NCBI GenBank assembly: GCA_965287045.1 | Contig: OZ336885.1 | Coordinates: 64,294,001 to 64,358,000, forward strand | DNA: 64,000 nt | From: Carcharhinus amblyrhynchos | Lineage: Eukaryota | Direction: 5' to 3' | In this document: in pieces, positions 16,455 to 62,830 of the stretch | Position numbering within the stretch: the stretch's first letter is position 1 | Layout of the letters: each line of letters begins with the position of its first letter | The notes under the pieces: generated by a model | What the model was told of the DNA's origin: nothing | The model's input: the letters and a program-made list of their open reading frames with translations, nothing else | The model's database searches: none | Translations under genes and position numbers: made by a program

Positions 16455-17329
16455 CTGTTACACAAGGGAAGAAGTATAGGAATGGGACGTTTTCAGAATA
16501 TGCAAGAAATACAAAAACACACGTGCTGACATTCAATGAGAAGATCCTCCACAATGTGAGTCAATCGCTTAAATGCATGCAATTCTCCATGTTAACACAA
16601 ATAATTCGGTCAGTATTTTAATTTTCGTATTAAACGGTCGAAATGTTATATTGGATTTTTTTTTAACTAACGGATGTATATAAGTTAGCACATTCAAGTG
16701 CTGCAAGTCAAGCTCAATCTTGGCACACATGTTTCGGCCATTTCGGTCTGCTCTGGTTCACTATCGCTAACAGTTTCCTTTACTTCAGCTCAGTGGATTT
16801 GAATCCTGTTCAGCCATTCCAAATGCATATAAATTTCCCACCATTCAATTTCTCACCCATCGTTTTGTTCTCCCTTTCTATCCGAAAGGACCTGGCTAAA
16901 GTCTAGCCAGCTCCATTAATCCTGAGTATACAGGAGGTCAGGTCCAGCTTCTCATCAGCATGATGTTGCTCCGAATTATTCATTAAAAAAAAATGTTGAA
17001 CCAGTTTCTTAGATTTTCCAGAAGCCATGACTGCGTCATACCAGCTCAACTACTGAATGTCTTTGTTACCTGTGGAAATACGTTACAGCAAACATCCGAA
17101 AAAGCTTTAAAATGCTGTGTTTCAAGTTTACTTCTCTGCGACAGCGATCTTCTGTTTTGTCATCAATATAGCTGCATTAATCACAAATTGCGTTGATACA
17201 TCTTTATGCATTTCCATTCTTGAGATTACTTCTCCATTTGTCCGATTCTCTTGGAATCGTCCGTCCATTTTTCTTTGCTGCCACATTGCATTGGGTGATG
17301 GAGGGTGAGAAAGTAGCGATCCAAACCAG

Positions 17330-19570
17330 TCTCCTCGATTTGAACTTAGGGGAGTATGATCAGATGAGGGCGGAATTGGCTAATGTAGATAGGGGGCAAA
17401 GATTGGATGGTAGGAAAGCTGAGGAACAGTGGAGATTTTTAAGGAGATCTATTTCAGTACTCAGGTGAAATACATTCCGATGGCAATGAAGGACTGTAAG
17501 AAAAGGGATAAACAGCCGTGGTTATCGAATGAAATAATAGAGCGAATTAAATTAAAAGCCGATGCGTACAGAGCAGCTAAAAATAGTGGGGAATTAGAAG
17601 ATTGGGGAAAATTAAAAAAAAAATACAAAGAATGACTAAGGAAGCAATAAAGAAAGGGAAGACGGAGTATGGAACTAAAGTAGCTCTAAATATGTTTTAA
17701 AAATCGTAAAAGTTTTAACAAATATATAAAGAAGAGACTGGCTAGAATGAATGTTGGACAATTGGAGGACGAGAGGGGGGTTTAACGGTGGGCAACGAGG
17801 AAATGGGTTGGTCTTTGCTCAGGAGGACACAAATAGCTTACCGAATATTAAAGATAGAGGGATGGTAGGAAATGAGGTCCTTAATACAATTACTGTTACT
17901 AGAGAGGAGGTGCTTGTTAGACTAACGCGACTTAACGCAGACAAGTCCCTGGGAGCAGATGGAATGCATCCCAGCGTTCTGAAAGTAATGGCAGAAGTAA
18001 TAGCCGATGCCTTCGTAATTATTTATCAAAACTCGCTGGACTCTGGGGAAGTGCCGGAGAATTGGAAAACAGCGAATGTTATGCCGCTGTTTAAAAAACG
18101 TAGCAGACAAAAGACAGGGAATAAGAGGCCGGTTAGGTCAACGTCCAAGGGCTGGAAAAAGGTTAGAATCCATCATCAAATAACAAACAGCAGGATACCT
18201 CGAAAAGAACAGTTTGATCAAGCAGACACAGCACGGATTCGTGAAGCGGATGTCGTGTTTAACAAATTTACTGAATTTCTATGAAGATGTGACTACCGTG
18301 CAAAACAGAGGGGAACCAGTGGATGTGGTGTTTTGAGATTTCCAGAAGGTGTTTGATAAGGTGCCTCAGAAAATGTTGCTGCAGAAGGTTAGGATACACG
18401 GAGTTGGGAGTAAAGTGTTAGCGTGGATTGAAGATTGATTATCTAACAGGAAGCAGAGAATTGGAATCAATGGATGTTTTTCTGGTGGGCAGTTGGTGAC
18501 TAGTAGAGTGCCACAGGGAGAGGTGCTGGGGCCTCAGCTGTTTACCATTTACATAGATGAGCTGGAGGAGGGGGCTGAGTGTAGCGTAACAAAAGTTGCT
18601 GATTACAGGAAATGAGTGGAAGGGCGGGTTGTGTGGAGTGCGCGCGGGAGGCGGGGGAGCTGTGGAGAGGCCTGCGTGGGCTGGGTGGGTGGGCGAGGAC
18701 CTAATAGATGGAGTGTAACGTTGGTAGGTGTGAGGTTATCAAGTTTGCTGGAAACAATAGTAGGAGGGATTATTATTCAAGGGGTGAAAAGCTGCCGCAT
18801 GCTACTGTGCTGAGGGACCTAGGGGTCTTTGTGCACGAATCGCGGGGAGTCGGTCTTCACGTGCAGCGGGTGATCAGGAAGGTGAATACAGTGTTGGCCT
18901 TTGTAGAGAGGGGGTACAATATAAGGGTGGGGAGGACTTGCTGCGGCTCTGCAGGGCACTGGTGAGGCCGCGGCTGAGGTACTGTGTGCAGTTTTGGTCC
19001 ACTTATTTGCGAGGGGATGCGTTGGCCTTGGGGGGAGTGCAGCGAAGGTTCACCTACTCTCACTGATGCCGGGAGGAGGGGGTTGGTCTCTGGGGAGAGG
19101 TTGAATTGATTGGTCCTGTACTCGTTGGAGCTTGGAGGGCGGAGGGGGGATCCTGTAGAGAATTACAGGAAATTAGGGGGCGGGGAGCAGAGTGGGGTGG
19201 AGGTAGAGGAATTATTTCCGCTTAGAAGGGAAGGCAGGGCTGGAGGGCACAGCCTCAAAGTTGGGGGTGTGGTGGTGTTTGGAGCGGCGTTGAGGAGGGT
19301 CTTCTTCACTCAAAGGGTGGTGAGTCTCTGGGGTTCTCTGCCCGTTGGGGTGGTTGAGGCTGCCTCGTTGAATGTGTTTGGATCACGGGCGAATGGGTGT
19401 CTGATGGACGGGGGGATTGAGGTTTACGGGGAGAAAGCGCGGAGGGGGGTTGGGGTGGTTGGGGGTTGGGCTGATCCACTTTAGATCAGCCATGGTCTTG
19501 CTTTTTGGTGGGGCAGGCTCAAGGGGCTGGGTGGCCTATCCCAACTCCTATTTCTTATGTTCTTATGATT
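17330..19570 (+). mobile_element. 5'-truncated CR1 LINE (ORF2 RT region plus 3' tail); 3' ~950 bp is A->G hypermutated
   Basis: ORF 17751-18284 contains KSLGADGMHPSVLK and GEVPENWKTANVMPLFKK. DFQKVFDKVP and VPQG.VLGP motifs follow; tail ttcttatgttcttatg. Confidence 0.92.
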
Positions 19571-20140
19571 GGTGCATCAAAGTAATGTTTTGAGGCGTGC
19601 AGTGTGAACTAAGTGCCATGTTTGCTCATATGTAACTATGTATAGATCGAACGTAGCGGAATGCGTGAGTATTGTCTCCATGTGGACTCTTTCCAGACAC
19701 AGCAACACATCGGTTATCGTTAATCCTCTCGATCAAACTCGGAGCTGATCTTCCTCCATCCCGGGAGAAACGTTTTGCCTCCGAATCAAAAGCATATACT
19801 AGGTATTGTAGTTTCAATTAATTGGCATCATACTTCCAGATATGCTTGAAGCTCCCCTTAAAATGGTGGCTTAAATTCTATTACTCATTGAACCACAATT
19901 GGTCAAGTCGTGTGATTGAAAGAATGGTGAAAGATTTTTTTTCAATGATGGTATTGATGACTGAGAAAGAACATAATTTCAATGATGTTATTGATAGGAG
20001 TCTAATTCTATTATTTTGTATTTTGTGTGATTTATCTTGGTGAGGTCGAAATTGTGTTTGTTTTCAACTATAATATGATTCCTCTGTGTGAGGTGGTGAT
20101 GAATAACATGGGTGTCGAAGTTTCAACTTGGGAGTTTGAC

Positions 20141-59989: not shown

Positions 59990-61100
59990 TGGAATCCACA
60001 TTCACAAACCCAACGACACAACTAACTGGTGATCAGGGCCTTCCTAGCCGCACTGGCATGACTCATTTGAGCTGCAAGCCCTCCTGCGCTTGGATGTTGC
60101 TATTGAGTGTACACTTCCTCTTTTCCTCCTTTTCTGTTCCTCCTCATCCTGTTACTCAGCCTCCCCAGCGAAGCCCATCTGTTCAGCCTAAACTGCCTCC
60201 TCCCCCTCCTCCAATTTGTCACCTTTCTGTAGAGCCAGGTTATGCAAAGCACAACACTCGGCCATGTGAGAAGAGATCATAGTGCTAAATTGGAGTGCCG
60301 CATCAGTGTGTCTAGACACTGCAGTCACATTTGCAGGAGCCAATGCACCTCTTCACTTTCACTCAGGTGGTGACATGGCCTCATTATAGCCGGTGGCTAC
60401 CTCAGTCACAGGCCTCTGCAAAGACATCATCAGCGATTTCCGAAGTGGCAATTCATGTTTCCCACGAACCACCTCTGGAGCCTCGGCTATTCCTCAAATG
60501 CTTCTGGGATGTCCGAACGCCTGGCAATGAATATGTCGTGCACACTACCTGTGAGTCTTGCGCAACCATGCATAATGTTCATGTTATAGTCACGGCTGAA
60601 AGTTCAAGGAGGGCAACCCCATTCTGTTCATGGGTCTTCATGGATTCCGTAGAGGGGACTTCAGGGCGACATGGCTGCAGTCATTGCTCGCTTGCACGTA
60701 AGGCATTCCAACAAAGGCTACAAACACTGCAGCCCGGGCTTCCTGATGGGCCTGGTCCAGGTTAAACATGAGTCACTGCCCAGACGGTCACACAGGGTTT
60801 CTGTGATATGCTTGACACAGCTATGCACAGCTGACTGGGGGATGTCACAGACATCTCTACTCGCGATCTGGAAGGAGCTGGTCGCATAAAGGTTCAGAGC
60901 CGTCGTCAATTTGACACCCTCCACCCTCCCCACCTCCTTCAAACCCGCCTCCCTCCACTTCGAGGTGCAAAGTCATGCAACAGGTTGCAGGGTCTCTCTT
61001 TGGGGACGGAGAACAAGTCAATGCACGATGTCCTCCATGTCTTCAACTGACACCCGTGTTTGGAACTGCCAATGCCTCTGCTGTCTCCTTCTCCTGTGTC
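59990..61100 (-). pseudogene. HARBI1-like DDE transposase, disrupted
   Basis: ORF 60718-60942 reads VKLTTALNLYATSSFQIASRDVCDIPQSAVHSCVKHITETL. It continues GMPYVQASNDCSHVALKSP, IMHGCARLTGSVHDIFI, YNEA and CCALHNLA. Confidence 0.88.
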
Positions 61101-62074
61101 CACCCCATGGGTCAATAGTGGTCATCTCCTGCCTCTGGTTGTCATCTCCCTCTACTCCTGCAAGTGGTAAGGCCCGGCCTCCTATACCCGCAATTCTTCC
61201 TTCAGCTTCACTTCCTCATCGCCAGCAGCTAGCAAAAGAACAACAACATCAATCAGTTGCTTTGCAAAAGCCATCTCTATGCTCTGAAGAGGGGGAGTGG
61301 GTGTGGTGGGGGAGAGAGATGGAATGAAACACATGTAAAGATCAAGGAACGTTTCTTGCCCACAACATATTACCAGTCACTGCCCATACCTGCCAATTCC
61401 ACCAGCCTCATTTTCCCCACAATCACAGCCCCTGCTCTTCACCCAGCCACATGTTTCCTGCAATCACAGGTACCCCCGTCAAACTACCAGCCCCCCACCC
61501 CCCCCCGCCCCCCCACCACCCCCGCCCTACCACCACCACCCCGCATTTCTCCAGCCACTTGGTCCCACTCAGCATACCTCCAATTCAACCAGCCACAAGC
61601 TCTCCATGACCACGACCACCAATTCCTCCAGGCAAATGCTCCCCATAATCACTGGCACCCTGCCAATTCCCCAACTCGCATGCACTCCGAACTCCAGCTC
61701 CTTCAAAATTTGAGAGGCTTCAACAGCGCAGTTTGCAAGGTTTTGTGCACATCCTTGAGCTAGAAGAATGTTCAGGACGCGAGGGCCAAGCAGCACACAA
61801 TACCCGTGGTCAGTTCTGTGTCTTGGGTTAGTATTGCAAACCGGACATCGGAGACACTGCTGAGCAACAACTCTCCAAACGCCACCACCAACACACTCGA
61901 CGATCCGCCAGTCACCCAAGAAAGAAAATTACAACAAAAGGACGCCCGTAAGCAGAAGGGAGCCATCGGACGCTACGCACTTACATTCACACCATCTATT
62001 CTCACTATGGAGCATGTCTGTTTTGCTCCGATTTCGGAATGGTGAACATGGCAGTAAAGGGGCACCTAAAGCAT

Positions 62075-62830
62075 GAGAACATAAGAAGTAGATGCAGGAG
62101 TAGGCCATCTAGCCCTTCGAGCCTGCCCTGCCATTCAATAAGATCATGGTTGATCTGAAGTGGATCAGTTCCACTTTCCCGTTTTCTCCCCATAACCCTT
62201 TATTCCCTTGTCTACCAAAAACCTATCTACTCGTGACTGAAATATATTTAGTGGCGTAGCCTCCACCACTTCAACGGGCAGAGAATTCCAGAGATTCATC
62301 TCCCTTTGAGTGAAGAAGTTCCTCCTCAACTCTGATCTAAACTGACGTTCCCTGATCTTGAGGGTGTGCCCTCTCGTCCTGCTATCCTTTCTAAGCGGGA
62401 AGAATCTCTCTACCTCTTCCCTATCCACCCCTTTCATTATCTTATACGTCTCTATAAGACCCCCCCTCATCCTTCTAAACTTCAACGAGTACAGACCCTG
62501 TCTGTGTAGTCTCTCTTCATAGTCCAACCCCCTCATCTCCGGTATCAGTCTAGTGAACCTCCACTGCGCTCCCTCCAAGGCCAACATATCCTTGCGCAAT
62601 TGCGGCGACCAAAACTGCTCACAGAACTCCAGCTGAGGCCTCAGCAGTGTCCTGTACAGTTGCAGCAAGACCTCTCTGCTTTTATATTCTATCCCACTCG
62701 TTATAAACGCCAGCATTCCATTCGACTTCTTGATCACCTGCTGCACCTGCAACATGGGTTTTTGCGACTCATGCACAAGGACCCCCAGGTCTCTCTGTAC
62801 CGGAGCATGCGGCAGCTTTTTATCTGCTGG
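62075..62830 (-). mobile_element. Young 5'-truncated CR1 LINE 3' end
   Basis: Uninterrupted 203-aa ORF 62165-62776 (LYRTLLRPQLEFCEQFWSP...RNFFTQREMNLWNSLP); agaacataagaag tail. Confidence 0.95.

Follow-up and report, generated by a model that had tools for sequence, protein, structure and literature searches.

The window analyzed here, a stretch of 64,000 nucleotides corresponding to C16:64294001-64358000 of a 2.92-Gb genome, contains a 5'-truncated copy of a non-LTR retrotransposon putatively of the CR1 clade rather than L2 (Table 1). Features of the CR1 clade are an ORF2 fragment with an RVT_1 domain and short tandem 3' repeats of 8 nt (two units, 19552-19567) without a poly(A) stretch, and the 5' truncation together with an end located at the 3' tail of the element are features of LINE retrocopies made by target-primed reverse transcription. 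The copy starts at 17297 and not at 17330, where an earlier note on this DNA had placed it; the sequence upstream is unique flank, and no target-site duplication of at least 7 nt was found at the ends of the copy. CR1-type elements often leave short target-site duplications or none. ORF2 is interrupted by stop codons and frameshifts, and apart from A>G changes the copy diverges from the family majority by about 8%. No host gene by which transcription could be oriented was found in the list of open reading frames of the window. On the minus strand, 60500-61900 is by eye reminiscent of a decayed Harbinger-type DNA transposon region.

Table 1. Features of the CR1-like copy and of a second copy of the same family in the window
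Feature	Position	Strand	Remarks
5'-truncated CR1-like non-LTR retrotransposon copy	17297..19567	+	~2.27 kb: 3' half of ORF2 and 3' UTR
Unedited 5' part	17297..18608	+	A>G 10/382, background level
Reverse transcriptase fragment	18331..18606	+	Pfam RVT_1, E 5.6e-9, X put at stops
A>G hypermutated tract	18609..19531	+	98/253 As; abrupt onset; adjoining 1-nt deletion at 18607
9-nt G-rich insertion in tract	18642..18650	+	
6-nt G-rich insertion in tract	19181..19186	+	
20-nt G-rich insertion in tract	19444..19463	+	GGGGTT-like expansion
Unedited 3' end	19532..19567	+	final four As retained
Unedited same-family copy, used for comparison in the earlier note	62072..62820	-	A>G 14/207

The A>G tract in DNA and in other species

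Changes in the window copy were scored against the per-column majority of an alignment with 22 long family copies, which are all those among 29 matches (L032-L060) that span it, and only columns with at least 70% agreement were used. Between 18609 and 19531, A>G (98/253) greatly exceeds T>C (10/198; Fisher p 1.4e-18), each remaining substitution class counts 3 to 15, and the A>G proportion differs sharply from the 10/382 found in 17301-18608 (p 8e-34). A>C and A>T taken together show no rise (13/253 in the tract versus 12/382 in the 5' part, p 0.22), and with G>A at 15/288 in the tract versus 20/339 in the 5' part, an APOBEC-type excess on the sense strand is absent. The maximum-likelihood change point places the onset at 18607-18622, and the last edit is found at 19531. 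The earlier note had described exactly such a pattern, A>G changes over about 950 bp which set in abruptly behind a 5' part without skew, based on a 33-mer that indeed differs from the copy at 62 kb at five sites only, all of them A>G (19324, 19332, 19333, 19348, 19349). This second copy begins some 170 nt 3' of the onset and is at most a candidate pairing partner. Among the G-rich insertions in the tract, the 9-nt insertion at 18642-18650 likely reflects slippage within a G/CG run that had just been created.

Short-read DNA contigs from two samples of one study (the best 32 of 9,681 records), one of which may come from the individual used for the assembly itself, tile the tract at the single-copy depth of the flanks with 0-1 differences; contigs of X1 cover 18562-19323, thereby crossing the onset, and 19506-19574, and a contig of X3 covers 18979-19535. 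A further contig (X1/X2, sample S1) spanning 19277-19535 shows 10 differences and extra length, and sample S2 matches the window; perhaps the 20-nt G-rich insertion has an allele of different length. In other species, organisms A, B and C show orthologous flanks and a filled site, with the 5' junction bridged by contigs of A and C and the 3' junction by contigs of A and B. The contig of organism B at 19076-19311 has 18 differences versus 26 A>G changes of the tract in this interval, and the contig of organism C at 19393-19544 (depth 2.9) has 8 versus 16. As these differences are fewer than the A>G changes of the tract itself, the orthologues in B and C carry edits, and the 20-nt insertion is apparently also present in organism C, at low depth. 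The 102 differences of the organism A contig at 19025-20735 do not separate an edited from an unedited origin, and for organism D no long contigs over the flanks were found. No empty or unedited orthologous site was seen in the flank contigs of A, B and C. Judging from these contigs, the tract is germline and older than the split of the host from at least two other sequenced species.

The Gs might still stem from GC-biased gene conversion, mark a G-rich subfamily, or be an artefact of sequencing or assembly, three possibilities which the earlier note had named as refutations. A subfamily can indeed mislead: the 15-18% A>G observed in many copies, a candidate for editing which was rejected, marks a second subfamily that mimics weak editing until its own reference is used, whereupon the signal vanishes. 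However, the 22 sister copies show only 1-10 A>G changes each over 18609-19531, each has 0-8 of the 98 Gs of the tract, and the Gs are common as a set to no other copy. In addition, neither T>C, the class that would be raised by GC-biased gene conversion, nor A>C or T>G is elevated, and independent DNA contigs carry the Gs. Since contigs of two DNA samples contain the Gs, as do the orthologues of other species, we dismiss these explanations, which retain practically no probability.

Further hypermutated loci and two traced copies

A genome scan for similar copies, as suggested in the earlier note, revealed 13 further hypermutated loci. Motif searches in which two or three Gs, or Cs, were required gave 3, 16, 195 and 41 matches. 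The first two sets were examined in full, the set of 195 through 30 matches and a further 19 chosen by hand, and the set of 41 through 30 matches and one more. Heavily edited were 1 of 3, 7 of 16, 1 of the first 30 of the 195 two-G matches and 5 of the first 30 of the 41 T>C matches; searches with two-G motifs thus return mainly background. Including the window copy there are at least 14 loci, with independent sets of edited sites, which comprise 13 sense pieces, whose edited parts show 21-67% A>G, and 6 antisense arms with 33-62% T>C. Most arms show an edited load of 50-67% within an overall range of 21-67%, and the window copy shows 39%. In all five loci where antisense pieces are edited, a CR1-type tail on the same strand forms the downstream end. 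None of 91 unselected young pieces was hypermutated. Setting the 7 heavy copies among 16 matches of one motif search against 111,186 exact occurrences of the unedited motif, and assuming that about half of the heavy copies carry both motif Gs, heavy copies amount to roughly 1 in 8,000.

For two hypermutated copies the unedited source was found. The first, C4:62393018-62403672 (10.65 kb; L082 2419 to L083 3073), is a colinear copy of C2:148509581-148497048, has foreign flanks, ends exactly at a CR1-type tail from a family different from that of the edited arms, and is free of two insertions gained later by the C2 source. Changes from C2 to C4 are A>G 330, G>A 47, T>C 39 and C>T 53. Where an arm has, within the copied RNA, an inverted partner matching it at 80% or more, A>G affects 270/475 As; the figure falls to 25/298 for weaker pairs and to 35/2111 for unpaired sequence, and in arms of both orientations the changes lie on one and the same genomic strand. 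In the sense arm only 3/78 As are edited up to family position 18800, and the partner begins at 18822; the partner in turn is edited at 1/30 opposite the deletion in the sense arm. The boundary of the partner thus explains an abrupt onset of the kind seen in the window copy. The C2 region is rich in repeats, and its C4 copy has the form of a very long tail-primed transduction. The source region has five or more paralogues at C2:148.5-149.3 Mb (L159-L170), which between them offer filled and empty CR1 insertion sites and are usable as a dating series.

The second, C200:86094-90232 (4.14 kb), is a copy of C160:281504-285643 and likewise ends at a CR1-type tail. Here A>G on the strand that ends in the tail accounts for 58 of 61 differences, with 55/88 in one arm and 3/556 outside. 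In C160, the partner of this edited arm (91%) lies beyond the priming tail, 1.7 kb 3' of it, and is absent from the copy, an example of how a copy and its partner come apart. No target-site duplications adjoin the C4 and C200 copies; both copies are known from the assembly alone, and C160 and C200 are small contigs. The C160 source (L208-L210) has few As (644 over 4.1 kb) and is embedded in GTCTC-rich sequence of short, tandem-like make-up.

For the window copy, a search with the 5' part recovered no source locus (best matches 85-88%, among the best 40 of 10,750 candidates scored), a search with the flanks was likewise negative, and of 155 private changes at most 6 are common to any of the 22 copies. 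The source could be unrecognizable by now, as the copy is old given its other divergence. In 324 kb around the copy no inverted partner starting near the onset was found. With neither source nor partner at hand, we infer the route of the window copy from its anatomy and from the two traced pairs.

A template switch near 18608, by which reverse transcription would have started on a short, edited CR1 RNA and moved to an unedited RNA to give a chimera, would account for the sharp onset and the 1-nt deletion beside it, and many edited copies elsewhere are indeed short and edited end to end. However, the sense arm of the C4 copy is split in the same way without any switch, as set by the end of its partner, and both halves of the window copy belong to the same subfamily and show similar divergence outside A>G. 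We therefore consider a template switch unlikely. Alternatively, an already existing copy might have been changed in place, either overwritten from its own edited transcript via cDNA or RNA-templated repair, or through deamination of DNA by ADAR in an RNA:DNA hybrid. In line with this, source locus, empty site and target-site duplication were not found in the searches for the window copy, and inverted family copies sit 21-57 kb away; yet of the 7 inverted copies of at least 300 nt within the 324 kb none is edited or starts near the onset, the two copies that were traced are new insertions, flanked by foreign sequence and derived from unedited sources, and every readable orthologue carries edits, which leaves a change in place with a slim chance.

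Some of the further loci deserve mention in their own right. At L086 (2287-5074), an edited copy lies 380 nt from an unedited inverted copy, which indicates that present-day proximity to an inverted copy is not in itself enough to cause editing. At L084 (4069-5031), an edited sense copy is followed by an antisense piece edited near the junction only, whose edited stretch is able to form a duplex (67%) with an older piece of the family, itself apparently edited; a single search with the junction, which is single-copy, did not find a parent. L204 (2948-3498) contains two moderately edited sense copies arranged head to tail (8/38 and 24/101), which probably represent one insertion.

Sequence context and a putative ADAR footprint

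The earlier note had predicted the neighbour bias of ADAR for the window copy. A depletion of 5' G is evident (23/89 versus 75/155, p 7e-4), but the expected enrichment of 3' G is not significant (40/91 versus 58/153, p 0.42). By 5' neighbour, the edited proportions in this copy are 0.55 for T, 0.56 for A, 0.25 for C and 0.26 for G. When 19 pieces were pooled, in which two motif sites per copy had been selected for and introduce a small bias, a graded preference for the 5' neighbour emerged with U 192/275 (0.70), A 265/403 (0.66), C 152/300 (0.51) and G 186/511 (0.36; p 1e-24), and the 3' neighbour gave G 0.58, A 0.53, U 0.50 and C 0.49 (p 0.07). The triplet UAG is edited most (0.78) and GAC least (0.27). 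Moreover, editing spares the 30 nt next to the 3' end of each edited strand, with 3/45 at sense tails, which are the same few sites in each copy, versus 130/232 just upstream. As this sparing also occurs away from the tail, at 3' truncation ends of antisense arms (3/38 edited within 30 nt), selection for an intact tail is not its whole cause. The 5' 30 nt are not spared (21/47 and 29/64).

The window copy taken alone, with A and T favoured equally as 5' neighbours and C equal to G, resembles the WA motif, the context of A>G changes of the polymerase eta type, so that polymerase error, of this type or from a dGTP/dATP imbalance during second-strand synthesis, has to be considered. Such an error would, however, neither skip the unpaired stretches of a 10-kb copy nor spare the 3' ends of arms, and the flat A>C and A>T counts of the tract also speak against it. 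A load of 40-65% is far above polymerase error rates of that kind. We regard polymerase error as very improbable.

For human ADAR1 and ADAR2, PMC3113232 gives a 5' preference of U>A>C>G with G as the best 3' neighbour, a halt of editing at 50-60% of the As, and duplex ends that are uneditable, and PMC10713624 gives strand-oriented offsets of -26/-35 nt. ADAR hyper-editing of long double-stranded RNA shares with our loci the A>G changes on one strand, the confinement to paired arms as found at C4 and C200, the order of 5' neighbours, the plateau at 50-60%, the uneditable ends and the strand-oriented effects, while a preference for 3' G is borderline in the pooled pieces. The spared 3' zone was measured in this study, and the two papers provide uneditable ends and offsets rather than the exact profile; in the spirit of the offsets in PMC10713624, the 3' sparing fits an enzyme which needs duplex 3' of its target. 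The pooled 5' context with UAG as the best triplet, the plateau of 50-65% and the spared ~30 nt at 3' arm ends match ADAR. One cell study, however, saw no editing by ADAR1 in human L1 RNA that was expressed (PMC5224506).

From these sequence comparisons, the tract would probably represent the record of an RNA duplex hyper-edited by ADAR and written into the germline by a CR1 reverse transcriptase. A long transcript would have run through the CR1 copy and a shorter inverted copy of its last ~950 nt, an arrangement for which the C4 and C200 pairs provide the example. Within this duplex, ADAR would have deaminated some 40-60% of the paired As and none in the unpaired 5' part, as suggested by the spectrum, the context, the plateau and the sparing of ends. 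The LINE machinery would then have primed at a CR1-type tail, to which the tail-ended, 5'-truncated anatomy and the parent/copy structure at C4 and C200 point; inosine would have been read as G, and copying would have halted after 2.27 kb with the partner left behind. Fixation of the copy preceded the divergence of the host from two or more other sequenced species, and the copy has decayed neutrally since. The earlier note had proposed that a hyperedited LINE transcript was retrotransposed, and the A>G spectrum and the traced pairs support the retrotransposition of an edited RNA. However, at C4 and C200 this RNA is a long host-type transcript containing inverted CR1 copies and primed at an embedded CR1-type tail, rather than just mRNA from an active LINE, and the same presumably holds for the window copy.

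Relation to known systems

In LINE-mediated transduction and retrocopying, a longer transcript gives rise to a copy elsewhere in the genome that is tail-primed and truncated at its 5' end. Whereas LINE transduction primes at poly(A), priming here would occur at an embedded CR1-type tail, with a cargo that carries RNA edits. ADAR hyper-editing is normally seen in RNA only, in contrast to the changes described here, which sit in heritable genomic DNA. Comparable is the ADAR-type A>G hypermutation of avian retroviruses (Felder 1994; Hajjar and Linial 1995, as cited in PMC8586724), in which edited RNA is likewise fixed as DNA by a reverse transcriptase. Those cases concern exogenous retroviruses in culture or infection, whereas our loci are non-LTR elements fixed in the germline and shared between species, with passenger host transcripts of up to 10.65 kb. 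Deaminase scars on retroelement copies with traced pairs of source and edited copy are also known for LTR retrotransposons, in which G>A editing by APOBEC became fixed in vertebrate genomes (PMC4866542, PMC2873906). APOBEC acts as G>A on the cDNA of LTR elements and has no pairing requirement, unlike the A>G changes here, and the screen covered LTR elements and DNA transposons and was filtered for G>A. PMC12548423 describes an excess of A>G in one endogenous mouse virus, in which the ADAR context is lacking. No report of germline-fixed, ADAR-hypermutated LINE retrocopies was found in the full-text literature searched, from which most subscription papers and supplements are excluded. Unedited source loci, duplex dependence and strand-polar sparing of ends are the distinguishing features of the copies described here.

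A-to-I editing is treated as non-heritable, and the deaminase scars catalogued in genomes so far are those of APOBEC, seen as G>A in LTR elements. We are inclined to think, with some reservation, that in this lineage the CR1 reverse transcriptase copies unspliced host RNAs of several kb from any embedded tail, and that it has thereby left a datable archive of single ADAR-edited germline RNAs including duplex boundaries and enzyme footprint, with heavy copies in the tens and light ones perhaps in the hundreds or more; RNA editing might then be a recurrent source of heritable DNA mutation. Each edited copy would stand for one germline RNA molecule and would report which inverted repeats paired, how far ADAR acted and where it stopped. 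The action of ADAR on retrotransposon-bearing RNA in the germline, the access of LINEs to edited nuclear RNA, and the share of the A>G strand bias of repeats that stems from RNA thereby become testable. Repeat annotators and users of RNA-editing pipelines should be aware that edited copies mimic hyper-edited reads.

A larger class of lightly edited copies is suggested by small A>G clusters in the last ~150 nt of many otherwise unedited copies among L093-L122 and L185-L204 (e.g. L099, L110, L096, L098, L200), whose terminal position is biased because the search motif sits there. In these clusters 5-9 of ~32 As are changed, with T>C at 0-1.
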